Assembly: GCA_016748015.1 (NCBI GenBank)
Contig: JAAOMT010000302.1
Coordinates: 434,001-498,000 of the forward strand
Reading direction: 5' to 3'
Origin: Geosiphon pyriformis uo1
Lineage: Eukaryota > Fungi > Glomeromycota
Length of the DNA stretch: 64,000 nucleotides
This document shows, piece by piece, positions 2,464-64,000 of the stretch (the first letter of the stretch is position 1; each line of letters starts with the position of its first letter). A model generated the notes under the pieces. That model was not told the origin of the DNA, did no database searches, and saw only the letters and a list, made by a program, of their open reading frames with translations. The position numbers and the translations under genes were made by a program.

Positions 2464-2502
2464 TACCGCCAGCACTACTATTATTGTAATAATTTTATTC
2501 AA

Positions 2503-8344: not shown

Positions 8345-9139
8345 TTATAAATTTACAGAGACAGAGCACCCCAGAAATACACAAAAGTGGTGACTATTAG
8401 AACAATAGGAAAGGACCACTCCTTGTACGGAAAAGCACTATTTCAGTACTTTTGAAAAGATTTAGGAATACCAGCAGAAATTACTATTGCAGAAAATGAC
8501 TTTTGCAACTATATCACCACAAAAATCAACTGCTTGTTAGGCCACACAACAGACACAAGAAGACTTGGAAAACAAATCCATCAAAGCTTACTAAGATACT
8601 TAACAACTACCACTACTCAAGTGATTGCTGAAACCCTATGCATAGTCAATATGGACATTAAACACTATGTAACAAAATGATTCTCTCAAGTACAACAACC
8701 AGTAGAATCCGATCTGGAGGAATATGAGTATGGATCCAATAATCCCACAACTGCCCAAGACAAATCCATGGTCAACAAGAAACCAAGGATCTTCTCCCCA
8801 ATAACTCCATCATACCATCAGACATCCCAAAGTAGAATTGTATTCAACCCACCTCTGGAAACCCAGTTGGAAACACCACAAACTTCTGGAAACTCACATC
8901 TTTGGAATCAACAAAGTTAGAACAAATCACTGAGAGAATACAAATTGCTGTTTGGAAATCTTACTCCAGCAGCCAGTCAACCAGAAGGAAACACATCAAC
9001 TTGAAAACAGCCACCAGCACAAAACCCAACAGAATTAGCATCTCTCCTGATGGAAGGAACAGCTATCCTACAACCTATTGGTTCAAGTGACAAAGAGAAA
9101 CAACCAGCATTAGCACCCAGAGAACACTCAAATACGTAG

Positions 9140-10104: not shown

Positions 10105-10150
10105 TTTGGTGCTCTTTTATGGAAATAACACAGCAACAACAAAATTCAAA

Positions 10151-13100
10151 GTGGCAACCATACCAGACACAGCAACTCTAGAGTATTATCAGTCAATTTA
10201 CACCCATTGCAAGCAAAAATTCAACATTCCAGACGGAATTGAAATTGTCAAGAGAACACTTTACTTATATATTAAAAACCGTATCAACAATTATTTTCTT
10301 AGAAATTACAACATTTCAGAAGTTAGAAGCAATCTCTACAATAATTTAGTGCACTATTCACGATTAGGAACTAAAAACCTTAACAGTAAAACACTTGTCA
10401 CCTACTTCCAAGAACTCAATTATAACATTATCAAGTATTGCGAAGAAAAATATTCAGTGTAGTCCAAATACTTTTTTGACTTTGAATCAGAAACAGAAAC
10501 AAGCAACAAAGGCAAACAAAAAGCAAAACAACACTCAAAAACCACTTCAAACACTCCAATACTGACAAAGACAACTGCCAAACACTTGCAAACACCTGAA
10601 CAAAGAACCAGTGTCAAATTACCACTCTCAATTACACCATTTCCAGCTTGACTTGCTTAACCACAAACACTAAAGCTTACCACTTATTTGGTTTTCAAGA
10701 ATAGAAGATTTTCAGTCACCCAAAAGCCCTATTCAACAACAGAAACCAATATTAACTAGCACAAACCTTATTGACTACTTAGCAGAAAATCGAAGTGAAG
10801 AGACCAAATCAGAACAAGAAACAGAAGACTCAGAAAACAAAAAAGAAATAGCCTCTACATATATCGCAAAAATTCCTGAGTTCACAGAAGAAGACAGCAA
10901 AACCAGTCCTCAAAAATGGCTTGACAAAGTCTCAAAAGCAGAAGATGCAAATGGTTGGAATACTGCCAGAATGTTAAAAGCAATTCCATACTTCTTACAA
11001 GGGATGGCTGGTAAATGGTTTGAAAACTTGGAAGCCCCACCAGAATACTGGGAAGCATTTAAAACTGCTTTTCTAGAACAGTTCACTGACAATAACACTT
11101 CCATTATCCTTCAAAATCAGTTCCGAAATATCAAGCAAGAACCAAGTAAATCAGTTATGACTTATTTTGGGAAATTCAACAAACTGCTTAGAAAGATTTG
11201 CCAATTGGAAACCAATGAATACTACTCCAATGCACAAATTTTGGATCAATTCATTGCTGGACTAAAAGACAAACTTATCAAGAAAGTTTGCCTACATGCA
11301 CCAGAAAATTTAGCCACTGCTATTCAACAGGCAAAAAACTATGAAATGGCCATGAAAAAAGCCAACCATACCAAACTTGTTAACCTGGCTATTGGAGAAA
11401 CCAGCTCAGCAGCTGAAAAAAAGATTGATCAATTAACCAAGAAAGTTGAAAACTACTTTATTAACCAACAGCAACAACAGCAGCTGCAGCAATCACAACA
11501 ACCACAAAGATACTAACTCCTACAATGACACAATCAAAACAACTTTGGACCATCATCCAACAACCAAATCCAAAATTGTCATTATTGTGGAATTCCAGAA
11601 CACTGGAAATGCGATTGTAGAAAATTTCAATAAGACCAACAACAGAGGAATAATTAACGTTATTTCCAATCACAACAATCATATTATCTACTATCATCAG
11701 CTCAATATTTACTAAGGCTACAATATTCAAACCACTATTATTAACCTGCTCCACAACCAATCCAACAACAGTATCAACAATTATCCACACCACAATATCA
11801 AGTGCCAACCAGAAGATTGATTCAATATAATCAATTTACACCACAAAACCGTTTTTCAACAAACAACAACAGATTAAATTCCAACAACTAATTAACCACT
11901 CAAAATTCGAATCAACATAGACCCATACACTATCACACTCAATTCAGTTATTTTACAATACCAGAGGAATCAAATTTTCAGCAAACTGCACTTTTTGAAG
12001 GTAAAGCTGCAGTACCAAGGCAAAATCCTTCTAATAATACTATCCCACCAGCCAGAATTGCCTGAAATGCCAATCTTTCAGACATCTTTCCATTCGAATT
12101 TGAAGCCAATGAATCACCATTTCTACTTAGCAATGTAGCAGTTAACAAACAAAAAGCTATTACAGCAATGTATACTAAAACTGAAGTAGAAGAAAAACCA
12201 ATTCACTTAATATTAGACAGTGGATTTGCTGGAAGTATTATTACCTACCAATTAATACAACAGCTTCAATGAACTGTTGACAAACCAGCTCAAACTGTCA
12301 TCATTATGGCAGATGGTATGAAGAAGACACCAGTAAGAGAAATTGATAATTTTTCATTCACCATTGATGGAATCACTATTTTAGTTAAAGTCCTAGTCAT
12401 GGATGTATCCCAATACCAAGCTTTCGTCAGAAATGATTGACTTCTCAAGGCCAATGCAAATTTAGATTGGGAAATTCAGGAATTAAAAATCTTATATCAA
12501 GGACAACACACCATAGTATCTGCTATGTGTAGAACTTTTAACAAATGATCAAAAAAAACCCCAGTACTTGAATTTGAAAAAGAGAAAAAAATGCCACTCA
12601 CTGAAACCTACATGGCTCTTGGATCAACATCCAATTGGGCTGAGGAAACAGAACAAAAAATCTTTGAAGAATCAAGAAAATAGAAGAAAGTTAGATATTC
12701 TACACCAGAACCATGAAAACAATCACCCTACATTTCACTTAAATGCAGAAATTGTAACAAAAAACTTCCATCAATGGAAGTCTACATTTTACCTGAAGAA
12801 AAATATGAAAATCATACTTGTTATTACTGCAAGACTTGCCACAGAGAACGATGGGGCCATCTAATAAAAAGAAGTGGAAAATAGGACAACACCCCTTGTT
12901 TGACTTGTGGAGATATGCTACTAGAAAAATACAATTGGATTAATATAGCAATGAAAGGAGGAGTCTGCGATCCAACCTGCCAATATGCTTTATCAATTTC
13001 AAAAAAAGTCAAAAGAAGAACACTTTTTGATGCAGCATACAACAGTGCTTTCAACAAACTTTATTACTACCCCTATGATGCTGAGATGATTTTTGACCTA

Positions 13101-17165: not shown

Positions 17166-17282
17166 TCACTATAGGTTCTTTTATAAAAATTTGGAAACAA
17201 TCCTACAAAAAATAACATAAAAATCTACATACCCAAAAATAATTTTACTTAGAAAAACTGTTAGTTCTTAAAAATCAGTATA

Positions 17283-17990: not shown

Positions 17991-18936
17991 GATATTAATT
18001 AACATAATATTACTCTTATAATTTCTACCATTAAATTAGCATATATTATCATTCAAATTATCACTTATTATTTAATCAAATTATCGAATATTATCAATCA
18101 ATTAATAACCCAATTTGTACTATAAAAATTAGGATGATTAAATTACACAATATTCCGAACAATTTAATATTCAAGAGTTCACCAAAATTTGTAGAAATTT
18201 GCCGAAATAATTGATAGTTCACCAAAATATTCAATAATTTATAGAAATAACTTATAAGTTCACTGAAATATACCTTTAGTTCGTTGAAATCATAGTAAAA
18301 AAAATAGTTCAAGTTTACAGATTAGTACTACAACAAGTTGTATAAAAAAAGAGCTTCTCTCTTCGAGAAAATATATTCTTACCTTTAGATATCTTAATTT
18401 GAATCAATTCAATACACAAAAACGAAATAAATATCAAATAATTCAAAAATCAACTTTTTAATTATTGCACCTGAAAATTCCCAAAACCCAACTAATATTT
18501 TGAAATTGATTAGCTACCAATTTCAATAAACTGTTAGTGATTCCAGGTTTGGATAGAAAACGTTCTCTTGACAGAATTCTATTTCTTTTACATTTTTTTT
18601 ATTTTTCTTTTTTTTTCTTATTACAATCATTAGGGTAGCTTACAGACAAGATTCCTGTAGAAGAGTTGACTTTCACAGCAAAGTAACTACACATTTTTAG
18701 TGAGCTTCCAGGCAAGCAATTCCTGGGAAAGAGTTGATGTTTACTACAATGTAACTACATAAAGTAATTGGCAAGGAATTGGCCATTCTACTCATAAGCC
18801 CAGCAGTTCAAATTATAGGAAATAATTTGAAGATAAATTCAGTTATTGGAGGTTCAACCACATCCAGAAAACGTGAATTTACAGTAAACAGACATCAACA
18901 ACCATTAAGAAAAGAGACCAAAAACCTTTGATAACA
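17971..18936 (+). repeat. 3' LTR of A1
   Basis: Direct repeat of 9140-10104. Confidence 0.93.
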
Positions 18937-21900: not shown

Positions 21901-24900
21901 GTTGCCTCTTGATCTAGTCTAGCCAAGAAAAAAATTGACATAAAAAGAGGAATCATCGATGCTGGTTACATGGGGAACATCATCATGATGCTACAGAACA
22001 ATTTGAACAGACCCTACAAAATAGAATCACAAGAAAAGATTGCTCAAGCTATCTTCCTACCCCTAATCAAAATACCCCAATTGATCCCAGTAACAACCCG
22101 AGAAGAATTAGGCCTCACTGCCTGAGGAATCAACAGGTTTGGATCAAGTGGAAAAGGAAATGTACCAGTTAATTTCACAGAAGAAGACAGTGACCAGGTA
22201 GAATTTATCTACACTAACACCATCATCTCTATTCCCTTATACTGACAATACATCCTCAAGGTGAATTGAAAGATCCAAGATCAAGCCCTGTTATTTGAAA
22301 CCAGTCCCAAAATCTGTTTCTTAACTAATGTTGCTAATCTATACCTACTGGCCAAAACCCATAAACACTTCAAAATCCCCATCCACAACCCAACAGAAGA
22401 TGTCATTGAAATCTCCAAAAGAACCCTTATTGGTTCCATATCTGCAGATATTCAAAATCTTGAAAAACTCCAGTCCATTTCAGACTTTGCACAATTATTC
22501 TTATTCTGCGACATTACCTTACAAGTATAGAATTTGCCAAAAAAAAGTTACTTGTTTACACCAAAAGAGATCAATAAATTGAATTTAGGAAACTTAAGTA
22601 CCCTGTAACAAATGCAACTCAAAGTCCTTCTGAATTAGCATGCCAATGTTTTTGCCAGTGAAAATGAATTTGAACACACTGACATCGTAAAGCATCAGAT
22701 TGATATGGGAGACACTTAACTGATTAAACAACAAGCTTACCGCATATCCCTATCTGGTAATAACCTAATTAAGCAAAAAGTGCAACAGATGCTTAATAAC
22801 GGCCTAATCAAAGAATTGTTAAGCCTTTGGTCTTCTCCAGTAGTCCTGGTTACCAAGAAAAATGGAAAGATACAATTCTGCATGGATTACCAAAAATTAA
22901 ATAGCATTACACAAGGAGATAGTTATCCCACTCCCCTTATTCAAGAAATTCTGGACAATCTAGAAAAAAAGAAATGGTTCTTATTATTAGATCTAGCAAG
23001 TAGTTATTGGCAAGTTGAAATAAACCCCAAAGACAAAAGAAAAACAGTGTTTATCACTTGAGATGGAAACTTCAAGTTTAACATAATGCCTTTTGGACTT
23101 TGTAATGCTCCTGCCACATTTCAACACCTGATGGATGTAGTATACAAAGGAATCCTTTGGAAATCAGTAGTAGTCTACTTAGATAACACAAATGTGTTCT
23201 CCGAAACATTTGATGATCATTTGCTCCATCTGCAACAAGTCTTTGAATGCCTTTGTAGTGCCAGATTGAAACTCAATTCCGAGAAGTACTTCTTTGGAAA
23301 AACTGAGTTAAAGTTCTTAGGACATATAATTGGCAAAAATGGAGTTAAACCTGATTCAAATAAAGTACAAAAAGTCAAGAATTTTCTAGCCCCAATCAAC
23401 CTTAGAGAATTACAAGGATTTTTAGGATTGGCAGGATATTATTGTCAATTTGTCAAAGATTTCTCGAATATTGCAAAACCACTCCATCAATTGTTGTCCA
23501 AATATGTATCATACTTATAAAAGGAAGATCAACAAAAAGCATTCGACTATTTCAAGCAGCAATTGATTACATCCTCAATCCTGATCTATTCAGATTTTAC
23601 TAAATGGTTCATTGTCACTACGGATGCCTTGAAAAATGCTTTAGAAGCAGTATTATTCCAGATAGAACCAGACAATAGAAAACATCCAGTTGTCTATGCC
23701 AGTTGCAGCACAAGCCCAGCGAAAAAAAATTACAGCACAACAGATTTGGAATGCCTTGCCATTTATTGGGTCATACAGACTTGGAAACATTACCTTAGTC
23801 AACCATTTGACCTATAAACCAATCACAAAGGACTTATTTGGTTACTCAATAATCCATAATTAGAAGAAAAATATGTGAGATGGAGTACTTATCTGTAACA
23901 ATTCCCACTCAAAGTCCATTACAAGAAAGGATTCAAGAACACCAATGTTAACAGTTTGTTGAGGATACCACAAACCTAATCCCAGACCCATGGACACACT
24001 CACTTATTAACAACTACATTAGTATCTATCAACACTACATTTCAAGGAGATATTATCTTAACAGGAACAAAGTATCATAAGAAAACAAGCCCAAAATTAT
24101 TTTATTCAAGACAATCAACTATATTGACGAGAATGCTAAAACCACCCCACTCCACAATGACTAATCAAGAACAGTGAAAGAGAAACTATACTATATAGTA
24201 TGTACTCAGATCTGATGTCAGGACACTTTAACAAAGATGCTATCCTCAAAAAAACACTAAATTTATACTATTGGCCAACAATATACAAAGACATTTTTGA
24301 ATACATGCTCAATTATAACACATGCCAGTAAAAAGGAGGAGCAAGATCAACAGAACCACTTCAATCTATTCCAGTTGAAAATCTATTTGATAGAATTGGG
24401 ATCGATTTGGTTGGTCTTCTCTCAATTATATCTAAAGGAAATTGGTATATCACTGTAGCCATTGATTATCTTACAAAATGGCCAAAAGCCAAAGCAATTC
24501 AAGTAGCCGATGCCAAAACAGTAGCTAAGTTCGTACATTAAGACCTAATTTGCTGACATAGATGTCCAAAAGAATTGTTATCCAATCAAGGAACACATTT
24601 TGTTAATAATACATTAACAAAATTAAGCCAATGGTTTGGTATAAAACATCCTTTATCATTACCATACCACCCACAAACTAATAGACTGGTAAAACAGTTT
24701 AACTGAATACTGTGTAAAGCACTAGCAAAAATAAGTCAAGAAAACAAACAAGAATGGGACCTATTCATACCTTTAGTACTCTTTGCATACTGAACATTAA
24801 AGCAAAATATAACACACTTCACACCATTCGAACTAGTCTATGGAAAAAAAGCTATGTTATCTATTAAATGAGAAATATTGTTCTACCCAACAGAAAAAAT

Positions 24901-26586
24901 TACTGAAGAGAATTTTAAAGCTACTTTGTACCACAGAACATACTAGCTAATAGAAATATTAAAAAACAATCAAAGAACAGCAGCTGATAATATTAGTAAT
25001 GCTCAAAAACAACAAAAGAAAAGACATAACAATTGCCTATCTGAACAACCAATGGAATTCAAGATTGGAGACCAGGTACTGTTACATTGTACAAAAGCTA
25101 AGAAACAGTGAAGTAGAAAGTTTGACCCAAAGTGGGATGGTCCATTCCACATATACAAAGCTTTAGGAAATGGAGCTTACAAACTACGATTGAAAGACAA
25201 AATTTTAAAGAAAGTAATGCATGGAAATTAGTTAAAAATTTAACATGCAAAACAGGAATTATTGTCATCAGTACCTCAACTAGGAACACAAATTTCATTA
25301 ATCAGACCAGAAGATATACCACAAGATCTGGAACCAATCATTATCATTGAAACATAGACAACATGCAGCAAATTAAATTGGGGAATTTAAATATATATAG
25401 CATCTGAAAAACAGCAAAAAATGATAGAAATTTCAACATGGATCTTTCAGATCAAATTTTAAAATTATCTAAACAATTATTTGAAACAATTCAAAAATTG
25501 ACATCTCAAATAGAAATAACAATTAATAAAAAAAAGATATAGTACAAAAATAAGAGCAGGAGAGGGGAGAACAAGAGTTCAATTAGAACTAAACGTTCCC
25601 TCTCCTAACCACCACCCAAAAAGCAATGTTGGAGGAAAAATTGCCTTTGGGCGGTGTTACCAAAGGTTTTTGGTCTCTTTTCTTAAATGTTGTCGATACT
25701 TGTTTGCTGTGAATTCACGTTTTCTGGATGTGGTTGAACCTCCAGTAACTGAATTTATCTTCAAATTATCTCCTATAATTTGAATTACTGGGCTTATAAG
25801 TGGAATGGCCAATTCCATGCCAGTTACTTTATGTAGTTATATTGTAGTAAACGTTAACTCTTTCCCAGGAATTGCTTGTCTGGAAGCTCACTAAAATGTA
25901 TAGTTACTTTGCTGTAAAAGTCAACTCTTCTACAGAAATTTTGTCTGTAGGCTACTCTAATGATTATAGTAAGAAAATAAAAGAAAAAAAAATAAAAAGA
26001 TGTAAAAGAAATAAAATTCTGTCAAGAAAAACGTTTTCAATCCAGGTCTGGAGTTACTAACAGATTATTGAAATTGGTAGCTAATCAATTTCAAAACTTT
26101 AGTTGGGTTTTGAGGATTTTCTAAATGCAATAATTAAAGAATTTGGTTTTTCAAATTATTTGATATTTATTTCTTTTTGTGTATATAGGAATGGTTCTAA
26201 GTAATAAATCTAAAGTAAGATACATTTTCTCGAAGAGAAAAGCTCTTCTTTTTATACAACTTGTTGTAACACTATTCTATGAACTTGAACTTTGCTATTT
26301 TCTACAATTTTGCTGAACTAAAGATACATTTCGGTGAACTACAAGTTATTTCTGCGAACTATTAGATATTTCGGTGAACTATCAATTATTTTGGCAAATT
26401 TTTATAAATTTTGGCAAACTTTTGAATGTTACATAGTTCGGGGTATTGCATGATTGATCATCGCAATTAGGTTACATTTGTGTTGTGTACAATTTGGGTT
26501 ATTAATTAAATGATAATTTCGGACATTTTTGCTAATGTAATAAGTGATAATTTGAAATGATAATATATGCTAATTAATGATAGGAA

Positions 26587-27324
26587 TTATAATATAGTTT
26601 CATGCTCAATAATATCTCTAATTTTGTCTGGTAACATAGCCTCCTCCTCAAGACTGAGCTCCATCGAAGTCCAAGTACTGTTTGTTATTTCCAGATAATA
26701 ATCCAAAATTATTGAAAAAATTTGGTCTGAAAATTGTTGAAATTTCAGTTCTGTGAGCTTTCCAATGTATTGAATCTTCAAAGGTTGAAAAATTGGGTTT
26801 TGTAGTACGTTTTCACAGATGTAGAATAGGTCATAAAGTCTAAGAGCAGCTCTGAGCCTGTAGCAACTGTTTGTTGATTCAGCTGTTGTCTTGAATTTGT
26901 TGTGAAGTTGTTTTTGAATAGCTTTTTTTGTGAGGTTTGCTGTTGTAAGTTCCAGTTTTCATTCATAGAGTGTTTTTTCAATGTGAAAATATCTATAGAT
27001 TGGAGGATATTCAGTGTTTTCCTTATTGAGACACAGTTGAAGTCTTTGTTGAATTGTAGCATTTGGTGGAATACTAATCAGAGTGAGCATTAGATTTTCT
27101 CTTAAAGCAAGCTTTAAAAGTTCTGGCAGGTGAATTCCAGTATAACTTCTTGTGTTCTTTTTATACAGGTGATATTTTCGTGAATTTGGGGCTAAATTTG
27201 TAACTATTTCTGTTTGGGTATAATTAATGTGGTTTTCAGTAACAGTAATGGATAATTCGGGTATTGTTTTTAAAGCTAACATTAGTTTTTGGGATAATTG
27301 TTGAATGTTTTGAGGAATAGTCAT
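26587..27324 (-). pseudogene. A2 ORF3 accessory protein
   Basis: ORF fragments 26959-27333 and 26587-26781 are in the same frame: MTIPQNIQQLSQKLMLALKT...YRYFHI...IQYIGKLTELKFQQFSDQI...ELSLEEE. Confidence 0.8.
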
Positions 27325-27445
27325 TATAAGCAATTTGAAATAAAAGAAAATTATTTTTGGTGTATGGGTTTTTATGTTATTTTTGTTTTGTTTTTGTGAG
27401 ATTGTTTCTAAATTATAAGAAGATAACTATAATAATTAATTTAAA

Positions 27446-30400
27446 TTAAGTGTTCAAGTTGGGAGGCTGTTCAATGACAACTATTGGTTCTAAATTTCGG
27501 GGAATGTCTTCAGGATTGATTTAAGGGAAATGTGTACCAATTTGTGGAATTAATGATTCAGGATTGTTTCTGGAATTATAGTGTTTCAAACGATCTCCAT
27601 GTGCAACTTTTGCTAGAATTTTGTCATCAAGTCTTAGTTTGTATGATCCATTGCCTAAAACTTCATGGATAAAGAATGGTCCATCCCATTTATTTTCAAA
27701 TTTCTCACTCCATTGTTTTTCAGCTTTAGTTCTGTGTAAGAGAACTTTGTTTCCAATTTTAAATTTATTGGTGATTGGAGGCAATTTGTTATCATGCCAT
27801 TCTTTTTGTCAAGCTTGGGAGTTTTCAATATGGGTGGCTGCTATTTATTGTTTTCCTTCCAACATACTAAGCAGAGTGTAGGCTCTTTGTTGAAGTGTTT
27901 CTTGAAAATTGTTTTTATTGATTGGTTGTGCTGGGTATGTTTCCACTGTAAACTTAATTGGTAGCATTGCTGTCCTTCCATAAGTTAAATCAAATGGTGT
28001 GTGTTTTGTGGTATCTTGTTTTAGTGTTCTATATGCTAGTAACACTGATGGAATAAAGATATCCCATTCTTGCTCAAAATTGGTTGAGACTTTGGCTAAT
28101 AACTCACACAATGTTCTGTTAAAACATTCCACAAATCTGTTTGTTTGTGGATGGTAGGGTGAAGACAGAGGTCTTTTGACATTGAATCGTTTGCAAATTT
28201 CTTGTATTAGGTTGTTCACAAAATGTGTTCTCTGGTCGGATAAAAGTTCAATTGGACATCTGTGTCTACAAATAATGTCTTTGTAGATGAAATTTGCTAC
28301 TGATTTTGCATCTGCTTGTTGAATGGCTCTGGCTTCGGACCATTTAGTAAAATAGGCTACAGCTACTGCAATATAACAGTTTCCTTGAGTAGTGATAGAT
28401 AATGGTCCGACTAAATCGATACCAACTCGGTCAAAAGGTTGTCCAACTTTGATTGGATTTAATGGTTCAGTAGGGCATGTTCTTTCTTTTCTTTGACAAC
28501 TATCACAAGATTCGACATATTCATGAATGTCTTTCCTTATTTGAGACCAAAAGTAATATTCTAGTGTTCTTTGAGTGGTGCTATCTTTTCCAAAGTGTGC
28601 TGATGAAGGATCTGAGTGCATGTTGTATAATATGGTCTCTTTTTTCTGTTCTTGTATTAGTCTGAGTGGTTTGTTTGGGTTTTTGAAATTTCGATGATAA
28701 ATAATATTGTTGTGTAGAAAATATTGTTTGGCCTTGTTGTTGTAGTTGATGTTTTTTATCTGGAGACCAATCTGTTGGAATTGTTAATGTTTCCAAATAT
28801 TGTTTGAGATTGTTGTAGTTTTCTGAATTCATTGTTTGTTGGCTCTTTTGGTTGGTTAAGTTGAGTGTTGGTTTTTGTTTTCTAATCTTGTCTCATTCTG
28901 AAGAGACAGTCAACATTGGTGTGGAGTTTTCCTGGTTTGTGATATACTATGTATCGATAATTTGCTAGAAATCCTGTTCATCGGGTTTGTTTTGCATTCT
29001 GCTGAGTATTTTTGTTCTGAAGCCATTTGAGTCCAATATTATCAGTGATAATATCAAATTTTTTAGGCCTGAGATAAAGATTGAAGTGATGTAGGGCCCA
29101 AATTACGGCTGCTGTTTCTAGTTCTGTGGCAGGGTAGTTTTTCTCAGCTGGTTTTAATGTTCTGCTAGCATAAGCAATTACTCATTCATTTCCATTGTCA
29201 TCTAGTTGTGATAAGATGGCACCAAAAACAGTATATGAAGCATCTGTAGCTAGTCAAAATCAGTTGCTAAAATCCGAGTAGGCAAGGATTGGGGCTGTTG
29301 TCAGTTTTTCCTTGAGAATTTCAAAAGCTTTTTGGTGTTCGGTAGTCCATTTGTATTCCACGTTTTTGGTGGTGAGCTGGTTGAGGGGTTTTGCAATTTC
29401 CAAGAATCCTTTGATAAACTTCCGATAGTAGGATGCTAATCTTATGAATCCTCTTAGTTTTGTAGTATTTCGTGGAACTTTGAAGTTCTTAACAGCACTG
29501 ATTTTTTCTGAATCTGGTTTGACTTCTTCTTCACTAACTATGTGACCAAGAAAGGCCAAACTTGTTTTTCCAAAATGGCATTTTTCAATGTTTAGTTTTA
29601 ATTCTGCTTTACGTAATCATTGAAAAACTTCTTGCAAGTGAATTAAATGAAGTCCGAAAGATGGGGAATAAACATCAGTGTCATTAAGATAGACAACTAC
29701 TGATTTCCAAAGGAGTCCAGCATATACAACATCTATGAGTCTTTGGAATGTTGCTGGTGCATTGCATAATCTAAAGGGCATTACATTGAATTCATAGTTT
29801 TCCCCTTGTATTGTGAATGCTGTTTTGGGGTGGTCTTTGGGATCCATGGCAACTTGTCAGTATTTGCTTTCTAGGTCTAATGTTGAAAAGTATTTAGATT
29901 TTCCAAGGGCATTTAACATGTTATCAATTCGCGGAAGAAGGTAAGCATCCCCAATGGTGACACTGTTGAGTTGTCGATAATCAACACAAAATTGTATCTT
30001 TTCATTCTTCTTTTTAACTAGGACCACTGATAAGGCCCATGGACTCATTGATGATTGGATAAACCCATTGTTAAGCATCCGTTGTACTTCTTCTCGGATA
30101 AATTGGTGGCTTTCTGGAGCAACTTAATATGCTTGTTGTCTTCTTGGTTTGGCATCTCCTGTATAAATTTGGTGTTGGACCAAATCGGTTCTTCCTAAGT
30201 TATTGTTGTTTTCAGCGAAGATATCAGCAAATTCTGCAATTAGTTCTTTGAGCTGGGTCTGTTGTTGTGGTTCAAGTTGTCCCATGTTGATTCGAGATAA
30301 TTTTTTCATGACAACATGGTAGTTTTCGGAGCTGGGGTTTGGATTGATTTTTGGTAGTGAATGTCCAATAATTTCAGAAAAATTGGGGACTGTTTGGGGT

Positions 30401-33400
30401 AATTCTTGTTGAAATATGTTATTGTGAATGATTCCAATTTCTAAGTTATTTAATAAAACTATGGGATAATTGTTGGGATTGTAAAAAGTAACTCAGACTT
30501 TCTTTGTTCCTTCTGGAATATAAATGTTTGGGATCAAGATATTATGTTTCAAGCAGATTTGTTCATTTGATTCAAAAATTTGTTGTGTGATTGTTGGCTT
30601 TTCACAAATGTAAATTTCAGGGTGTTCTCTAAAGGGTGAAATGGTAATTGGTTGTGGAAGTTGTAAAATCTGGTGAGATTCTTTCTGTTCATTGAAAGCT
30701 ATGTTTACTGGAACTGTGAAACATCCAGTTGAACCAAAACCTTGTGTTCCTCTTTCGCTTTTTCCCAACTGTTCTCTTTGATTAACTAATTGTAAATCTG
30801 AAATATTGATTAAGGGTAGATAGATAGCTTGAGCAATTTTTTCAGCATATCTAATTTTGAAAGGTTTATCAGTTTTATTTTGTAATATAACTGTGATGTC
30901 TCCTGTGTATCCAGCATCAATGATTCCTTCTCTAACATTGATTCCTTTGCTTGCCAAAAATAATTGAGAAGCAATTTGAACCATTGCTCCTAGTGGAATT
31001 TTAAGAGCAATTTTGAGGTTGATTTTTGTGAGAGATTTGGGTTTGAGAGTAAGAGTATCTTTTTCTGGATATCTTAGATCATATCCAGCATCGATTTTGT
31101 GGGCTTTTTTTGGTTTTATTCCTTGTCCATTGTTGTTGAAATATTTGAGTTGTAAAGCAGGCTGATTTTTGATGAGATAGATGGGTGTTGTCTCAATTTT
31201 TTCTGTTGCTTCAAGTTCTCCGAATTCAATTTCGTATTCATCATTTTTGCTGGGCAAGGGAATGCTAAGAGCATAGCATTCAAGACACCACTGTTTATCA
31301 CAAGGCATAATACATTCTTCACATAGTCTAATGTTCATTTGCTCTAATTGTTGAATTTGAGCTTTTTGGGTTGGGTAGGTGTGACTTGCAATTTGGTGGT
31401 AGACTTCTACTTCGTCTTCATAATCAAATCCAGCTAATTCCATGGTGTATTCAATGTATTCTGCTTCCTTCATTTGGCGAACATCTTCTTTGGTAGCTTC
31501 ATTAATTAATGCCATTGCTAGGTTGAAAATCATTTTGGCATCATGAAGGTAGTGATAAAGTTTGTTGAGAGCACTGTTGTATGCTGCATTAAAGGGTGTT
31601 CCTCTTTTTACTTTTTCTGAAATTGATAAAACATATTGGCAGGTCTGATCGCAAACTCCTCCTCTCATGGCTACATCAATCCAATTGCATTCTTCTGGTA
31701 GCATATCTCCACAAGTCAAACAAGAGGTGTTGTCCCATTTTCCACTTCTTTTTATTAGATGGCCCCATTGTTCTCTGTGGCAAAGCCTTGCAGTAATAAC
31801 AAGTATGATTTTCATATTCTTCTTTGGGTGAAATGCAGGCTCTCATTGATGATAATTTCTTGTGGCAGTCCTTATATTTAAGGGGAATATAGGGGCGTTG
31901 TTTTTTTGGTTCGGGTTTTGAGTAAGGTATATTCTATCCAGAGGTTTCGGGTTCAAAGTGTGGGGTAAAATGTTCTTGTTCTGTTTCATTGGCCCAGTTG
32001 GACGTTGATCCAAGAGCTATGAATGTTTCAATGAGGGGTTTTTCCTCTTCTGGTTCGAATTCAAAAGCCAGGGCTTTTTCAGAGTGTTTGTTGAATGTAT
32101 CACAAATGGCAGGTACTCAGGCGTGTTGTCCTTGGTAGGAAATTGTTAACTCTTGTGTTTTCCAATTCAGATTAGCATTGGCTTTTTGAAGCCAATCTTT
32201 TCCAATGAGAGTTTGGTATTGGGGTGCGTCCATTACAAGAACTTTAACTGAAATGGTAATTCTATCAAGAGTGAACAGAAAATTGTCAATTTCTCTTACT
32301 GGGGTTTTTTTCATGCTATCGGCAGTAACAATTACTGTTTGAGCTGGTTGGTCAATATTTTTTTTCAACTGTTGCATTAACTGGTAGGTGATAATGCTTC
32401 CGGCGGATCCACTGTCTAGGATTAAGTGAATTGTCTTTCCTTCGACTTCGGCTTTAGTGTACATGGTCGTGATTGCTTTTTGTTCATTGGCGGCTGTATT
32501 GTTAAGCAGAAATGATGACTCATTTGCTTCAAACTCAAAAGGAAATATATCTGAAAAGTTAGCATTTTCAGCGATTTTGGCTGGTGGAATTGTGGTAGGA
32601 GTATAGGAAGGATTTTGTTGTTGTGCTGCAGCTCTACCTTTCGAGAGTGCAGTATGGTGAAAATTCTGTTCTTCCGGCATTGTTAAATAACTGGGTTGAG
32701 TGTGGTAGTGGTTGGGTCTTGGTTAAGTGGTATTTCGGAGAACCAATTGGTTGTTCGAACTGATTCTATTGTTGTTTGCTTGGTATCGGTTTTGTGGTGT
32801 GAATTGATTTTGTGTAAGCAGTCTTTGAGCAGGTACTTGATAATATTGTGTGAGCGGTTATTGGTATTGCTGTGGGATTGGCTGTGGGGCAGGCTAATAA
32901 TAGTTATTTTGGTATTGGGATCTTGGTGGATAGTAAGCTGGTGGTGACAATTGATAATAAGATTGCTGTGGTGGAGGGTAATGTTGATTACTCCTATTTT
33001 GTTTGTCTCATTGTAGCTTTCTGCAATCTCTTTTCCAGTGGCCAGAAATTCCACAGTAATGGCAATTTTGAGGCTGGTTATTGGAAAGTGGTGCAAAGTT
33101 ATTTTGATTTCATCTTTGGGGTGGTTGATATCTTTGGAGTTGCTGTTGTTGTTGATTGGTGAAATAGTTTTCAACCTTCTTTGTGAGTTGGTCAATTTTT
33201 TCCTCAGCTGCTGAGCTGGTTTCTCCAATTGCCAAATTTACAAGTTTTGTGCAGTTGGCCTCTTCCATGGCCATTTCGTATCTTTTCGCATGCTGTATGG
33301 CAGAGTTTAAATCTTCTGGCGCATGTAGGCAAACATTTTTAATTAGTTTATCTTTTAGACCAGCAATAAATTGATCCAAGATTTGAGCATCAGAATAATA

Positions 33401-34492
33401 ATCATTTGTCTCAAGTTGGCGAATTCGTCTGAGAAGTTTGTTGAATTTCCCAATATAAGTCATAATGGATTCGGAGGGTTCTTGTTTGATATTTCGAAAA
33501 CGATTGTGAAGAGTGATGGAGGTGTTATTGTTGGTGAACTGTTCAAGGAAGGCTGCTTTGAAAGCATTCCAATCATTGAATGGGGTGGCCAAGTTTTCAA
33601 ACCATTCTTCTGCTGTTCCTTTGAGAAAGTAAGAAATTGTTCTTAATATTCTGGCAGCATTCCATCCATTTGCATCTCCAGCTTTAGTAACTTGGTCGAG
33701 CCATTCTTGGGGACTGGTCTCAATATCTTCTTTATTAAATTCAAGGATTTTTGCGATGTATGTTGTCATTTTGTCTTCTTCCTTTTCACTGTCTATTGAT
33801 TCTTCTTTAGTTATTTCAGAGTTGTTTTCTTTATTTGCTGCTGTCTCAGAGTGTTTACTTTGATTTTCAGCTAGAAAATCAAGGAGATTGGAACTAGTTT
33901 GAAGAAGTTCTTGTTGTCTGGTGGGACTTCTGAGTGATGTAAAATCTTTTGGTCTTGCAAATCAATTTAAGGGTGAATTAGGTGTTTGTGCTTGTGCAAG
34001 TGAAGCTGGAAAAGGTGTGATAGTAAGTGGAAGTTTTGAACTGGTTCCTTGTTTAGGTGTTTGTAAATGTTTGAATGATATTTTGGGAGTATTGGGTGTT
34101 ATATGAACAGGTCGGTTATCTCTTTGTCTTTTGTTGCTACTGGTTTCAGGTTCAGATTCAAGTTCAAAGACAAATTGTGTGTTTGCAGGATATTTTTCTT
34201 CACAGAATCAAATGATATTATAATCAAGTTTTTCAAAATAAGTAGTGCAAGCTTCAGCACTAATGTTTTCTGATTCAGTGTTGGAATAGTGTAGTATGTT
34301 CTTAAGAAGATCTCTTTTAATTGTTGTAATATTATAGTTTCCAAAGAGGTAGTCGTTGATTCGATTTTCGATGTATTGAAAAAGTGTTTTCTTGAAAGCT
34401 ATGATTCTGTCACGTATTTCAAATCGTTGTTTGCAGTGTGTGTAAATCAGTTGATAGTACTCTAAGGTTGTGATGTCTGAGGCAGTCGCCAC
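27446..34492 (-). pseudogene. A2 gag-pol
   Basis: Gag 33110-33769, PR LILDSGSAGS (32117-32680), Cys-rich domain plus dUTPase (30493-31815), RT 29617-30078, RT-RH connection 29260-29559, IN HHCC/DDE 27845-28621, GPF module 27521-27784. Confidence 0.92.
30724..31155 (-). other. dut: dUTPase domain of A2 pol (best-preserved copy)
   Basis: Four of the five trimeric dUTPase motifs are clear (DAGYDL, GIIDAGYTG, EKIAQ, RGTQGFGSTG). Motif II reads IASQLFLA here and IASRSFLA in A1. Confidence 0.9.
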
Positions 34493-36371
34493 TTTGAATT
34501 TGTTGTTGCTGTGTTATTTCCGTGGGAGAGCACCAAATGTTACCAGAGGTTTTTGGTCTCTTTTCTTAAATGTTGTCGATGCTTGTTTGCTGTGAATTCA
34601 CGTTTTCTGGATGTGGTTGAACCTCCAGTAACTGAATTTATCTTCAAATTATCTCCTATAATTTGAATTACTGGGCTTATAAGTGGAATGACCAATTCCG
34701 TACCAGTTACTTTATGTAGTTATGTTGTAGTAAACATTAATTTTTTCCCAGGAATTGCTTGTCTGGAAGCTCACTAAAATGTATAGTTACTTTGCTGTAA
34801 AAGTCAACTCTTCTACAGAAATCTTGTCTGTAGGCTACTCTAATAATTATAGTAAAAAAATAAAATAAAAAAAAATAAAAAGATGTAAAAGAAATAAAAT
34901 TCTGTCAAGGAAAACGTTTTCAATCCAGGCCTGGAGTCACTAACAGATTATTGAAATTGGTAGCTAATCAATTTCAAAACTTTAGTTGGGTTTTGAGGAT
35001 TTTCTAAATGCAATAATTAAAGAATTTGGTTTTTCAAATTATTTGATATTTATTTCTTTTTGTGTATGTAGGAATGGTTCTAAGTAATAAATCTAAAGTA
35101 AGATACATTTTCTCGAAGAGAGAAGCTTTTCTTTTTATACAACTTGTCGTAACACTATTCTATGAACTTGAACTTTGCTATTTTCTACAATTTCGCTGAA
35201 CTAAAGATACATTTTGGCAAACTACAAGTTATTTCTGTAAACTATTAGATATTTCGGTGAACTATCAATTATTTCGGCAAATTTCTATAAATTTCAGCAA
35301 ACTTTTGAATGTTACATAGTTCGGGGTATTGCATGATTGATCATCACAATTAGGTTACATTTGTGTTGTGTACAATTTGGGTTATTAATTAAATGATAAT
35401 TTCAGACATTTTTGCTAATGTAATAAGNNNNNNNNNNNNNNNNNNNNNNNNNNNNNNNNNNNNNNNNNNNCTATTCTATGAACTTGAACTTTGCTATTTT
35501 CTACAATTTCGCTGAACTAAAGATACATTTTGGCAAACTACAAGTTATTTCTGTAAACTATTAGATATTTCGGTGAACTATCAATTATTTCGGCAAATTT
35601 CTATAAATTTCAGCAAACTTTTGAATGTTACATAGTTCGGGGTATTGCATGATTGATCATCACAATTAGGTTACATTTGTGTTGTGTACAATTTGGGTTA
35701 TTAATTAAATGATAATTTCAGACATTTTTGCTAATGTAATAAGTGATAATTTGAAACAATAATATATGCTAATTAATGATAAGAATTATAATATAGTTTC
35801 ATGCTCAATGATATCTCTAATTTCATTTGGTAACAGCAGAAGGTGAAAAAAAAAGAGGCAAAAAACGAGAAAAAGGTTACAAAAAAAGATACTTGGTTCC
35901 TGAGCTCGAAGAAATAAAAGAAGCTTTAGCTCATAAGACTGAACTCTCCAAAACAGGGAAGTGGACACTTGACAATGCCCAGGAATGGAAAGAAAAACTT
36001 CCTCCAGCTTATTGGTTCTACAAAATTGGAGAACAGCTTGACTTAAAAACACCATACGAAGACCTCAGCCAGAAAACATTCAACAAAGAAGCAATACAAC
36101 AAGTAGAAAAATTCATAGGGAAAAACAACCTGACCCTATATTACAAAGTAGCATACCAACTATACACTACCTTCCAATATTGCCCAAACGTACTACTGAA
36201 CGGATCTATAAAAACCATAATGATTAACAACATAGGATAAATAACCAATCAACAGTTCAAAGACTTATAAAAGACAATACTCGAGACAACAATCAAACAT
36301 TACATGAATGAAGCCACAATAACAGATACATATGGTTTTGCAGGAGCTCAATTTTAAAAAGAGAGAAATAA

Positions 36372-43800: not shown

Positions 43801-46453
43801 GACAATTTGAGGGTTTTCATCTTGAAAGATATTGCTGTGTATGATTCCAATTTCTAATTTGTTTAATAAAACAAGATGTGTATAAGAGACAGGCATAGCA
43901 TTCTAAACACCATTGGTCATCACAAGGCATAACACATTCTTCACATAATTGAATGTTCATTTGCTCTAATTGTTGAATTTGAGCTTCTTTGGTCGGATAT
44001 GTGTGGCTTGCAATTTGGTGGTAGGTTTCTACTTCATCTTCATAATCAAATCCAGCTAATTCCATGGTGTACTCAATATATTTAGCTTCTTTCATTTGGC
44101 GGACATCTTCTTGAGTGGCTCCATTAATTAATGCTATTGTTAGGTCAAAAATCATTTCAGCATCATGAGGGTAGTGGTAAAGTTTATTGAGAGTACTGTT
44201 GTATGCTGCATCAAATGGTGTCCCTCTTCTGACTTTTTTCGAAATTGATAGAGCATATTGACAGGTTTGATCACATACTTCTCTTCTTATTGCTACATCA
44301 ATCCAATTGCATTCTTCTGGTAGTATTTCTCCACATGTAAGGCAAGGTGTGTTGTCTCATTTTTCACTTCTTTTTGGAGATCCAAATCATTCTCTATGGC
44401 ATGCTTTGCAAAAGTAACAGGTACAAGTTTCATATTTCTCTTCTGGAGAAATACATGTTCCCATTGATGAAAGTTTTTTGTTGCAATCTTTGCATTTGAG
44501 TAGAATATAGAGTGGTTGTTTCTGTGGTTCTGGTGTAGAATATCTAACTTTCTTCCATCTCCTTGATTCTTCAAAAATCTCTTGTTCGGTTTCTTCAGCC
44601 CAATTGAATGTTGATCCAAAAGCCATGTAGGTTTCAGTAAGTGGCATTTCTTTCTCCTCTTCAAATTCAAATACTGGAGCTTTTTCTGATTGTTTGTTAA
44701 AGGTACCACAGGTTGCAGGTACTATGGTATATTGTCCTTGGTATGAGATTTTAAGTTCTTGAGTTTCTTAGTTCAGGTTTGCATTGGCCTTAAGAAGCCA
44801 ATCATTTCCAACTAAAGCTTGGTATTGAGGTGCATCCATAACAAGAACTTTAACTGGAATGGTGATTCCATCAATTGAAAAAGGAAAATCATCAATTTCT
44901 CCTACTGGAGTCTTCTTCATACTATCAGCTGTGACAATAACTGTTTGAGCTGGTCTGTCTACATTTTGTTTGAGTTGTTGCATCAGCTGGTAAGTGATGA
45001 TACTTCCAGCTGATCCACTATCTAAGATTAAGCGAATAGGTTTTCCTTCCACTGTAGCTTCTGTGTACATGACAGTAATTGCTTTCTGTTCATTGACTGC
45101 TGTATTACTAAGCAGAAATGGTGATTTATTTGCCTCAAATTCAAATGAAAATATATCTGACAGATTAGCATTTTGGGTAATTTGAACTAGGGAAATGGTG
45201 TGGTTAGAAGAGTTTGATCTTGGTGCTGCAATTTCACCTTTAGAAAGTGCAGTTTGTTGAAAATTCGATTCCTCTGGTATTGTAAGATAACTGGGTTGAA
45301 TGTGATAGTGATTGGGTCTTTGCTGGCCCAAATTTCGGGGAACCAATTGGTTATTTAGATTGATTCTGTTGTGGTTATTCTGCAATTGATTTTGGGGTGT
45401 GGATTGGTTATGTTGAACCAATCTTCTTGCTGGTACTTGATATTGTTGAGTGGGTGGTGTCTGATATGGCTGAATTGGTAAAGGTTGCTGATATTGTTGC
45501 TGCATTGATTGTGGAACTGGTGGATAATAACTATTTTGATTTTGTGGTCTTGGTGAATAATAAGTTGGTGGTGGAGATTGGTAATAGGATTGTTGTGATG
45601 AAGAGTAATGTTGATTACTCCTGTTTTGTTGGTCTCTTTGTAATTTCCTACAATCTCGTTTCCAGTGTCCTGGAATTCCACAATAATGACAATTNNNNNN
45701 NNNNNNNNNNNNNNNNNNNNNNNNNNNNNNNNNNNNNNNNNNNNNNNNNNNNNNNNNNNNNNNNNNNNNNNNNNNNNNNNNNNNNNNNNNNNNNNNNNNN
45801 NNNNNNNNNNNNNNNNNNNNNNNNNNNNNNNNNNNNNNNNNNNNNNNNNNNNNNNNNNNNNNNNNNNNNNNNNNNNNNNNNNNNNNNNNNNNNNNNNNNN
45901 NNNNTCTGGAGAAACGGCTAAGTGGTGAACTTGGTGTTTGTGGTTGAACAAGTGAAATTGGAAATGGTGTAATAGAAAGTGGTAATTTGATACTGGTTCC
46001 TTGTTCAGGTGTTTGCAAGTGTTTGGCAGTTATCTTTTGTAATGTTGGAGTGTTTGGAGTGGTTCTTGAGTATTGCTTCAATCTTTGTTTGTCTTTATTG
46101 CTTGTTTCTGTCTCTGATTCAAAGTCAAAAGAGTATTTAGACTGTACTGGGTATTTTTCTTCACAATACTTAATAATATTAAAATTAAGTTCTTGGAAGT
46201 AGGTAGCAAGTGTTTCACTGTTCAGATCTTCTGTTCCCAAATGTGAATAATGCTCTAAATTATTGTAGAGGTTGCTTCTAACTTCTGAAATGTTGTAGTT
46301 TTCAAAAAGATAATTGTTGATACAGTTTTCAATGTATTAGTATACTGATTTCTTTACAATTTCAATTCCGTTTGGAATGTTGAATCTTTGCTTGCAGTGG
46401 GTGTAAATTGACTGGTAATACTCTAAAGTTGCTGTGTTTGGTGTGGTCGCCAC
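40846..46453 (-). pseudogene. A4 gag-pol (dUTPase segment lost at an adapter junction)
   Basis: CHYCGIPGHWKRDC, LILDSGSAGS, RT 42889-43431, RH 42385-42855, IN 40846-41760. Confidence 0.9.
43874..43892. other. Nextera/Tn5 mosaic-end adapter (sequencing artefact)
   Basis: Exact AGATGTGTATAAGAGACAG; translates as PVSYTHL in ORF 43465-43896. Confidence 0.97.
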
Positions 46454-59400: not shown

Positions 59401-60401
59401 ATATTGTGAAAGCAATTTCAGAGAGTAATAGAGGTGTTGTTGTCAGTAAATTGTTGCAAGAAAGCATCTTTGAATGCTTGCCAGTTTCCAAAGAATTCTT
59501 CTAAATTTTCAAACCATTCTCCTGTAGTTCCTTGAAGGAAGTATGAAATTGCTTTAAGTATTCTTGCTATATTCCATCCATTTGCATCTCCTGCTTTCTG
59601 AACTTTGTCAAGCCATTCTTGAGGGCTAATATTATTATCTTTATTCATAAATTCTGAGATTTTTGCAATATAAGCAGTTGCTATTTCTTTTTTGTTTTCT
59701 GTGATTTTTTCTTGTTTTGATTCAATTTCTTCACTTTTCAAGTTCTCTGAATAATTACTTTTGTTTTCTTGTAAGTAATCAATAATATTGGTGCTGGTTG
59801 ATATTAGTTCCTGCTGTTAAGTAGGACTTTTAAGTGACTAAAAATCTTCTGGTCTGGAGAAATGGATAAGTGGTGAATTTGGTGTTTGTGGTTGAGCAAG
59901 TGAAATTGAAAATGATGTGACTGAGAGTGGAAGTCTGGTGCTGGTTCCTTGTTCTGGAGTTTGCAAATGTTTGGCAGTTATTTTTGGTGTCTTTGGAGTG
60001 TTTGGGATGGTGCTTGAGTATTTTTTTAGTTTTTGTTTGTCTTTGTTGCTTGTTTCTGTTTCTGATTCAAAGTCAATAAAGTATTTAGACTGTACTAGAT
60101 ATTTTTTTTCACAATACTGGATAATGTTGAAATTAAGTTTTTGGAAGTAGGTACCAAGTGTTTTACTATTAAGGTCTTCAGTTCTCAATTGTGAATAATA
60201 CACTAAATTATTGTAGAAGTTGCTTCTAACTTCTAAAATGTTGTAATTTTCAAGAAGTTAATTGTTGATGTGGTTTTCAATATACTGGTAAAGTGTTTTC
60301 TTAACAATTTCAATTCAGTTTGAAATGTTGAATCTCTGCTTGCAATGAGTGTAAATTGACTGGTAATATTCTAGAGTTGCTGTATTTGGTGTGGTTGCTA
60401 C
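53435..60401 (-). pseudogene. A5 gag-pol, including dUTPase ~56724-57140
   Basis: Fragments DAGYDL (56918-57244), IIDARYTGD...EKIAQ (56724-56957), Cys-rich domain (57335-58123), Gag (59037-59741). Confidence 0.88.
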
Positions 60402-61419: not shown

Positions 61420-64000
61420 TTGAATAGGTTTTTTTTCAACTTTAGCTTTTGTATACATTGCTGTAATTGCTTTTTGTTTATTGACTGCTATATTGCTAAG
61501 CAAAAAAGGTAATTTATTTGCTTCAAATTCAAATGGAAATATATTTGAGAGGTTGCCATTTTGAGCAATTTGGGCTGGAGGAATAGTATTGTTGGAAGAG
61601 TTTGATCTTGGTACTGTAATTTCATCTTTAAAAAGTGCAATTTGTTGAAAATTTGATTCTTTAGGCATTGTAAGATAACTGGGTTGAGTGTAGTAGTGAT
61701 TAGGTCTTTGCTGACCAGAATTTATGAGAACCAATTGGTTGTTTGGATCGATTCTGTTGTTATTATTCTGAAATTGATTTTGAGATGTGAATTAATTATG
61801 TTGAACCAATTTTTGGACTGGTACTTAATATTGTTGTATAAGTGGTTGATATTGTTAAATTGGTAGAGGTTGTTAATATTGTTGTTATAAAACAGATTGA
61901 TAATAATTGGTTTGCTGTTAGAATCTTGAGGAATAGTAAACTGGTAGTGGAAGCTGATAATGAGATTGCTGTGTTGAAAAGTAATATTGATTACTCCTAT
62001 TTTGTTGGTTTCTTTGTAGCTTTTTGCAATCTCATTTCCAATGGTCTGGAATTCCACAATAGTGACAACTTTGGTTTTGGTTGTTTGTTGATGATGAGTA
62101 GTTGTTTTGGTTTTATTGCTGTGATAACTGATATCTTTGTGATTGTTGCTATTGTTGTTGGTTGGTAAAATAGTTTTCAACCTTTCTTATAAGTTGGTTA
62201 ATTTTTTCTTCAGCTGCTGAGCTGGTTTCTTTAATAGCAAGATTTACAAGTTTGGTATAGTTTGCTTCTTTTATTGCTGTTTCATAGTTCTTTATATGTC
62301 TAATGGCTGTTGCTAAGTCTTCTGAGACATGTGAGTAAACTTTCTTGATTAACTTGTCTTTTAATTTCTGCTATAAACTAATCCAAAATCTGGGCATTGA
62401 AATAGTATTCATTGGTTTCTAATTGTCAAATTTGTCATAAAAGTTTGTTGAATCTCCCAAGATAGGTTATGATAGTTTTAAATGTTTCTTGTTTAATATT
62501 GTGAAAGCAATTGTGGAGAGTAATAGAGGTGTTGTTGTTGGTAAATTGTTATAAGAAAGCATTTTTAAATGCTTGTCAGTTTTTAAATAGTTCTTCTAAG
62601 TTTTCAAACTATTCTTCTGCAGTTCTTTGAAGAAAGTATGAGATTGCTTTGAACATTCTTGTTGTATTCTATCTATTTACATCTCCTGCTTTTTGAACTT
62701 TGTCAAGTTATTTTTAAGGACTGTTATTATTATCTTTACCAGTAAATTCTGGAATTTTTGCAATATAAACAGTTGCCATTTTTTCTTTGTTTTTTGTAGT
62801 TTCTTCTTGTTCTGATTCAATTTCTTTACTTTCTAAGTTCTTTGACTGATTTCTTTCGTTTTTTTGCAAGTAATTAATGATATTAGTACTGGTTGATATT
62901 AGTTCCTGCTATTAAGTAGAACTTTTAAATGACTGAAAATCTTCTGGTCTGGAGAAACGAATAAGTAGTAAACTTAGTGTTTGTGGTTGAGCAAGTGAAA
63001 TTGAAAATAGTATAATAGAAAGTGGTAATTTAACATTGGTTCTTTGTTCAGGTGTTTGCAAGTATTTGGCAGTTGTCTTTGGTATTATTGGAGTGTTTGG
63101 AGTGGTTCTTGAGTATTGTTTCACTTTTTGTTTGTCTTTGTTGCTTGTTTTGGTTTCTAATTCAAAGTCAATAGAGTATTTAGAATGTACTGAGTATTTT
63201 TCTTCACAATACTAAATAATGCTAAAGTTAAGTTCTTGGAAGTAAGTGACAAGTGTTTCATTGTTAAGGTCTTCAGTTCTCAATTGTAAATAGTGCAATA
63301 AATTATTGTAGAGATTGTTTCTAACTTCTGAAATGTTGTAGTTTCCAAAAAGATAATTGTTAATGCAGTTTTCAATGTATTGGTATACTGATTTCTTGAC
63401 AACTTCAATTCCGTCTGGGATATTGAATCTTTGTTTGTAGTGGGTGTAAATTAACTGATAATACTCTAGAGTTGTTGTGTCTAGTGTGGTCATTACTTTA
63501 AAGTTGTTATTGCTGTGTTATTTCTGTGAGAGAGCACCAAATGTTACTGGAGATTTTTGGTTTTTTTTCTTGAATGTTGTTAATGTTGATTTGCTGTGAA
63601 TTCATATTTTCAAGAAGTAGTTGGACCTCCAATAACTGAATTTAGCTTCAAATTATCTTTTATAATTTGAACTACTGGGCTTATAAGTAAAATAGCCAAT
63701 TTCATGTCAGTTATTTTGTATAGTTACATTGTATTAAACATCAACTCTTTTCCAGAAATTGTTTGTCTAGAAGCTTACTAAAATTGTGTAGTTACTTTGC
63801 TGTGAAAATCAACTCTTCTATAGAAATCTTGTCTGTAGGCTACCCTAATGATTATAATAAGAAAAATAAAAATAAAAATAAAAAAAATGAAATTCTAACA
63901 AAAGAAACGTTTTCTATTTAGGCCTGGAGTTACTAACAAATTACTGAAATTAGTAGTTAATCAATTTCAAAATATTAGTTGTGTTGAGAGATTTCAAGTG
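61420..64000 (-). mobile_element. Family A copy A6: 5' LTR (63542 to window end), PBS, N-extension, Gag and start of protease; cut by the A5 5' LTR
   Basis: PBS (GAGAGCACCA on +) at ~63530-63539. Gag ATG at 62779. The sequence stops at KVEKKPI, just before the protease LDSG. Confidence 0.85.

Follow-up and report, generated by a model that had tools for sequence, protein, structure and literature searches.

A candidate GUG start codon for a long Gag, about 240 codons upstream of the capsid AUG, in Ty3/Gypsy retrotransposons of Geosiphon pyriformis

Where translation of Gag begins when its reading frame continues for 241 codons upstream of the capsid ATG is the question raised by a retrotransposon copy, A2, in the genome of Geosiphon pyriformis uo1. 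The DNA analysed (GenBank accession number JAAOMT010000302.1; positions 434001 to 498000) is referred to as the window, and coordinates are counted from the first of its 64000 nucleotides (Table 1). The window is a nest of decayed LTR elements of the Ty3/Gypsy type, in which Pfam searches identified Ty3-type capsid, protease, dUTPase, reverse transcriptase (RT), RNase H and integrase domains. The elements of the two families found here, A and B, are Ty3/Gypsy LTR retrotransposons, with LTRs that have TG...CA ends, a primer-binding site, a polypurine tract and, along the strand, PF19259, PF03732, PF13650, PF00078, PF17919 and PF00665 (Ty3-type capsid, then PR-RT-RNH-IN). LTR sequence is reported to make up 41.2% of the G. 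pyriformis genome (PMC11952901).

The original prediction placed the start of the extension at a GTG codon in the context AAA-GTG-G, and this sequence was confirmed in copies A1, A2 and A4 and in element B; in A5 and A6 the codon reads GTA. The in-frame stop claimed to lie a few codons further upstream is a TAA in all five A copies of the window but is replaced by Q or H in 24 of 93 family-A gene models. Above the TAA, the frame is next closed by a TGA, 36 codons from the GTG, and no in-frame ATG lies between this TGA and the GTG in the A copies of the window. In copies that carry the TAA, no other near-cognate codon lies in frame between it and the GTG. A 1 nt insertion between a CAG and the GTG, as had been noted for A1, also occurs in seven contigs and seven gene models; frame-changing indels are thus tolerated directly above the GTG. 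No stable hairpin was found downstream of the GUG.

Homologues of the A2 extension were sought, and all 120 matches listed (of 276) were G. pyriformis gene models sharing no more than 89% identity with it; for the B extension, 25 of 25 were. These models represent more copies from one species rather than independent taxa, and one of them, P0135, may be copy A1 itself. All support for the GUG reading is drawn from G. pyriformis. With a profile, 123 matches were obtained among 1.84 billion representatives, adding two families, C and D; when 20 of these matches were looked up, 19 were G. pyriformis models and one was a weak match. A 24-residue metagenome match looked unrelated, and a search of viral contigs revealed no relative.

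For comparison of the boundary, 185 of 249 stored proteins were assigned to families by N-terminal motifs in which the start residue was left free and the next residue was A, V or T. The start residue is V in most members of each family (100/132 in A, 18/20 in B, 17/23 in C and 9/10 in D), with M in 16, 0, 5 and 1 models, respectively. K precedes this V in 134 of 144 cases (A 93/100, B 18/18, C 14/17, D 9/9). The residues further above K-V differ between families (FK, IK, PK and TK), and similarity between families begins at K-V, from where the extensions of A and B align, as predicted, with 15–25% identity over the N-terminal domain. AAA-GTG-G was read in DNA for A and B, C and D being known from proteins; however, as V is replaced by M more frequently than by I, GTG is implied in C and D also. 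At the other end of the extension, the capsid starts with M in most models of A (105/117), B (14/14) and C (8/10) and in one of three in D, the remainder having I. The gene finder had reached the extension via many unrelated upstream exons, as would be expected where no ATG can be used. Gene finders that are unable to start such ORFs would thus invent upstream exons, which fits the reported overlap of 61% of G. pyriformis gene models with transposons (PMC11952901).

The direction of decay bears on how V and M at the boundary are read. Differences within LTR pairs are nearly all transitions (60/60, 31/32 and 100/110). When A2 was compared with contigs, 33 of 40 differences have A or T in the window where most of the depth has G or C, the 40 being the best supported of 179 and the contigs coming from one DNA run, possibly that from which the window itself derives. 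At both stops in the A2 extension, most of the contig depth has CGA. Under decay from G to A and C to T, changes from GTG to ATG or GTA, from ATG to ATA and from ACG to ATG are expected, and a change from ATG to GTG is not. The minority of Met at the V position therefore fits decay of GTG.

Coding constraint was examined with a simple dN/dS method, which had been proposed as a check on the extension. Over codons 1–110, A2 differs from the other four A copies at 49–56 of ~64 synonymous sites with dN of 0.30–0.34, that is, synonymous sites are saturated, and the same codons read in the two shifted frames gave ratios of 0.41–1.16. The ratios elsewhere were 0.24–0.39 for the linker, 0.12 for the capsid and 0.12–0.22 for RT-RNase H. 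As a non-coding LTR control gave 0.21–0.74 by the same method, overlapping the linker, only the domain is clearly set apart from non-coding sequence. The N-terminal domain of the extension is under purifying selection. Indels between A subfamilies measure 9, 24, 9 and 3 nt, and the A1 extension has a single private insertion of 1 nt.

A helical domain of ~110 aa had been proposed, and AlphaFold2, run on the A4 copy with 103 sequences, predicts a helical domain for the first ~105 residues (mean pLDDT 87). The Ser/Thr/Pro linker said to follow it was also found (~130 aa), and is in addition acidic, with S/T-P motifs and a patch of basic residues. Sequence searches of Pfam and PDB gave no match for the domain. 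Foldseek gave no match (best E 2.5 in PDB and 0.97 in BFVD), and with VIA the best match, a designed protein (Z 7.2, rmsd 3.2, 98 aligned), was within the helical-bundle background, though this absence of a fold match does not amount to a new fold. No MA structure was among the fold matches listed. The retroviral matrix protein (MA) has a size of ~100 residues. Like the predicted domain, MA is helical and located N-terminal to the capsid (position, PMC6525542). Unlike MA, the domain here has no Gly at position 2 and would be substoichiometric.

The original prediction of no ATG over ~770 nt in A2 (33770–34537) was borne out, with none in 768 nt where ~9 are expected; there is no sense ATG from 34736 to 33770, and the first, at 33769, begins MTTYIAKI. 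Counts from the primer-binding site to the capsid were compared with the mean of 1000 dinucleotide shuffles, though the copies are related and the tests are therefore not independent. Depletion was found in A2 (0 against 9.4), A4 (0 against 6.1) and A5 (0 against 6.8; p≤0.001 in each), A1 (1 against 6.1; p 0.004) and A6 (3 against 7.1; p 0.03), but the B count was not significantly low (9 against 13.4; p 0.08). ATG is the most depleted trinucleotide in the A2, A4 and A5 leaders. No depletion was seen in the controls, namely the capsid regions of four A copies, five pol regions and two 3′ regions; the B capsid region is itself low in ATG (9 against 15.4; p 0.014). The leader holds the longest ATG-free run of the element in A1 (797 nt), A2 (968 nt) and A5 (964 nt), and runs on the opposite strand do not exceed 327 nt. 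The ATG claimed for the capsid start is present there in A2 and A6 but not in A1, A5 and B, in which ATA is found.

The gene models give a similar picture for family A, in which Met accounts for 6 of 26015 extension residues and 239 of 16549 downstream, although these counts are biased low as models that start at an internal Met escape the motif match. In family B models, Met makes up 0.64% of the extension and 0.43% of the downstream sequence. All five Met columns in the B extension are T or V in most rows. The D extension has an internal Met column in three of three aligned rows.

An out-of-frame ATG arises mostly where an N, D, H or Y codon is followed by a codon starting with G. The A2 extension has one such junction in 241 codons, against 11 in the 220 codons of the capsid. 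A shuffle of synonymous codons alone was not significant (0 against 1.1 ATG), because with just one junction it has little to act on. The observed to expected ratio of [NDHY][VADEG] pairs is 0.35 in A and 0.33 in C (median shuffle p 0.013), and 0.94 and 0.97 in the respective capsids; the values in B (0.49) and D (0.54) are not significant and are similar to those in their own capsids. Families A and C therefore avoid amino-acid pairs that would spell an out-of-frame ATG. At the pairs that survive, a G-to-A change affects the second residue at 0.30–0.46 against 0.11–0.19 elsewhere in the four families (2–6 columns per family), and no such excess is seen in the A capsid control (0.146 against 0.147). 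The excess points to CpG-forming NAC-G at the surviving pairs rather than NAT-G. The absence of AUG between the two starts thus holds in A and C and is weaker in B and D.

The LTRs were searched for promoter motifs. The A LTR has TATAAAA ~602 nt and AATAAA ~514 nt before its end, and both families share a TTATAA closer to the end (144 nt in A, 161 nt in B). From either TATA candidate the A leader has no ancestral ATG; the B leader lacks one from the proximal candidate only, as six ATGs further up are common to the two B LTRs. Among 11 A-type LTR pieces, all eight ATG columns in the last 560 nt are polymorphic, seven with ACG or decay products and one with GTG; further upstream in A LTRs, ATA is the usual alternative at the four ATG columns shared most widely. 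A stop-free frame of 58 codons without an ancestral ATG ends at the LTR end (34542–34715, minus strand), and removal of a 35 nt GT-AG stretch over the primer-binding site would join it in frame to the extension, a joint made in several gene models. Over its last ~440 nt (34538–34980) the A LTR is 83–94% identical between subfamilies that are near synonymous saturation, which suggests either recent exchange or an RNA or DNA element under strong constraint; a search of this LTR end against Rfam gave no match, and no Rfam family or tRNA of note was found. A long T-rich tract is also present in A and B LTRs, 320–450 nt before the LTR end (34845–34890; 7900–7950).

Splicing could supply the start of the long form in two ways. 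An upstream exon with an AUG might join a CAG acceptor above the GTG, unspliced RNA being scanned to the capsid AUG. In A, a CAG is found 15 nt above the GTG and in B the GTG is preceded by TTTACAG, the gene finder used such joints in 62 of 93 models, and an ATG-free extension would be expected if the long form stemmed from spliced RNA. In B, an ATG is found in both LTRs 144 nt before the end, followed by the donor-like GGTAAAT, and its frame would join via the acceptor; however, this ATG lies just 17 nt after the proximal TATA candidate. In A, since all ATG columns over the last 560 nt are polymorphic, there is no conserved AUG to donate, and the insertion between CAG and GTG, in A1, seven contigs and seven models, would break the spliced frame. 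Similarity between the families begins at K-V and not at the acceptor, and the upstream exons of the models are many and unrelated, so splicing of this kind appears unlikely. Alternatively, AAAG-TG could itself be an AAG acceptor, an exon ending in A building an AUG with TG-GCG. Its AG falls exactly at the conserved boundary, and donor-like AAA-GTAACT sequences are present ~255 and 172 nt before the end of nearly all A LTRs, although these are upstream of the proximal TATA candidate. Splice acceptors are preferably YAG and rarely AAG, and four families would need the rare form (K being AAR) while skipping a nearby CAG, at a site in an A-rich stretch that has no pyrimidine tract; this route is judged highly unlikely.

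The GTG might instead be simply a conserved valine, the extension being translated from another non-AUG codon, by reinitiation, or by frameshift or readthrough from a short LTR frame. The 58-codon frame does reach the LTR end, some copies have an ACG in good context and 24 of 93 family-A models have no stop at the TAA position, but 4 of 10 LTRs have AAG in place of that ACG, GTG comes first among the in-frame near-cognate codons after the stop in TAA-bearing copies, and A and B do not share one frame relative to the primer-binding site. Such a source is thus quite improbable. That the start was originally an ATG, or the leader dead and the pattern a product of decay, is very unlikely and largely refuted. 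All copies are decayed, M is found here in 16 of 132 family-A models and G-to-A decay removes ATGs; however, ATG decays to ATA (I at 12 of 117 family-A capsid starts) rather than to GTG, most models in each of four families have V, downstream ATG is undepleted under the same decay, and the domain shows coding constraint.

Leaky scanning with dual initiation is, we infer, the best-supported reading, and one unspliced RNA probably gives both a long Gag started at the GUG and a capsid Gag started at the AUG. This part of the original prediction is partly supported, by the constraint on the domain, the K-V boundary in four families and the avoidance of amino-acid pairs. With a conserved GTG in strong context at the start and a conserved Met at the end, leaky scanning with two products is the simplest arrangement. 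A fraction of scanning ribosomes would start at the GUG and the remainder would scan ~720 nt more to the capsid AUG, which would account for the purging of ATG in all three frames, as a coding region would not need to avoid out-of-frame ATG if it were not scanned. In mammalian cells GUG initiation is reported to be raised ~5-fold by G at +4 (PMC5778536), and GUG is described as the sole start of eIF4G2 (PMC5666671, PMC9082881). Given the precedents of rice tungro bacilliform virus (RTBV) and of GUG initiation, the long Gag would be the minor form. It is predicted to co-assemble into the particle, and as the N-terminus of the Ty3 capsid is reported to run outward (PMC6525542), the ~105-residue helical domain would hang outside the capsid shell on its flexible ~130-residue linker, at the place of the retroviral matrix. 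Our guess is that it is most likely a targeting or host-interaction module.

The likeness to glyco-Gag of murine leukaemia virus (MLV) that had been proposed holds for how translation starts (gPr80, PMC3042739) but not for the product. In MLV, an enveloped gammaretrovirus, the glyco-Gag extension starts at CUG and has 88 aa with a signal peptide leading to ER glycosylation; here the candidate start is GUG and there is no hydrophobic segment, nor any sequence or fold match. A membrane segment corresponds to a hydropathy threshold of ~1.6. The highest 19-residue hydropathy is 0.33–1.02 in six of six extensions from four families, and neither a signal nor a transmembrane segment was found. The host is a fungus, and no env-like gene was detected. 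The predicted long Gag is not a glyco-Gag.

Other systems resemble this one in part. PEG10, a mammalian gene derived from Ty3/Gypsy, makes its Gag-like protein from two starts, an AUG and, further upstream in the same frame, a non-AUG codon, as reported from mutagenesis, but there a CUG is the main start, the extension is 34 aa and the gene is a domesticated host gene (PMC2800197), whereas here GUG would precede ~240 aa with a predicted folded domain in mobile fungal elements. On the pregenomic RNA of RTBV and badnaviruses (Caulimoviridae), a weak non-AUG first start, AUU in RTBV, is described as used at ~10%, ahead of ~900 nt with no internal AUG (PMC5902531), though these viruses express separate ORFs after ribosome shunting and not one in-frame Gag extension. 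Fungal cpc-1 is reported to have conserved near-cognate start codons, flanked by A at -3 and by G at +4, and extensions of 120–180 aa under purifying selection (PMC5487733) but, unlike Gag, is a host transcription factor under uORF control. Gag isoforms arising by start choice and leaky scanning are described for the LTR retrotransposon Ty1 (p22/p18, PMC5408680); these are truncated restriction factors from two AUGs on an internally initiated RNA in a Ty1/Copia element. No report of a non-AUG Gag start in a fungal or other mobile Ty3/Gypsy element was found in searches of mainly open-access literature.

If dual initiation is correct, start-codon choice would join frameshifting and splicing in setting the make-up of LTR-retrotransposon particles, these elements would be a mobile counterpart to glyco-Gag and PEG10, and the extension would reveal an uncharacterised Gag domain. 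Purging of ATG through amino-acid pairs could serve as a signature for such extensions in other elements. The wider picture is held tentatively: a whole Ty3/Gypsy lineage overrunning a Glomeromycotina genome may make two particle proteins from one RNA by way of a GUG 240 codons above the AUG, with a minor, outward, matrix-like domain of no known family, the amino acids of which have been shaped by selection for scanning in several families.

Table 1. Features of the Gag extensions and of the A2 leader (window coordinates)
Feature	Coordinates	Strand	Basis
Candidate GUG start of long Gag in copy A2, AAA-GTG-GCG	34490..34492	-	Sequence; K-V start in four families
Predicted N-terminal helical domain of extension, ~105–111 aa; decay stop TGA at 34210	34160..34492	-	AlphaFold2, synonymous saturation
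Ser/Thr/Pro-rich and acidic linker, ~130 aa, basic patch; decay stop TGA at 33964	33770..34159	-	
First ATG, start of capsid domain, MTTYIAKI	33767..33769	-	Sequence; Met common in models
Gag capsid region, Retrotrans_gag PF03732 and Ty3_capsid PF19259	33110..33769	-	Pfam
ATG-free stretch, longest of the element (968 nt between ATGs)	33770..34736	-	Sequence
In-frame TAA, eight codons above GTG	34514..34516	-	Sequence
Primer-binding-site-like TGG motif directly after LTR end	34520..34535	-	Motif
A2 5′ LTR, crossed by N gap	34538..35835	-	Sequence
Proximal TATA candidate, TTATAA, 144 nt from LTR end	34677..34681	-	Motif only
Distal TATA candidate, TATAAAA, then AATAAA at 35054–35049	35133..35139	-	Motif only
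A1 extension: GTG; ATA at capsid start; one 1 nt insertion	10151..10847	+	
A4 extension: GTG; cut by N gap	45920..46453	-	
A5 extension: GTA; capsid start ATA; 964 nt without ATG	59700..60401	-	
A6 extension: GTA; three ATGs; capsid ATG at 62779	62780..63496	-	
Family-B extension: GTG; interrupted by A1 insertion, resumes at 18937	8387..9139	+	

Element B (7258–37464) holds both A1 (9140–18936, same strand) and A2 (25655–35835, opposite strand), and a matching pair of target-site duplications was not evident next to A1, A2 or B. The dUTPase is located between protease and RT in both families (A2 30493–31842; B 21250–22800), as reported for some fungal gypsy elements (PMC2864245), and copy A4 is missing ~800 nt at this site. 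Within the A2 LTR, 273 nt at 100% identity flank the N gap (35155–35743), a scaffolding duplication. A decayed remnant of another repeat (50068–50843) matches the N-terminal part of gene model P0125, with no Pfam match in the single frame tested, and a fungal host gene with a Gti1/Pac2 domain is present at 2233–3819.
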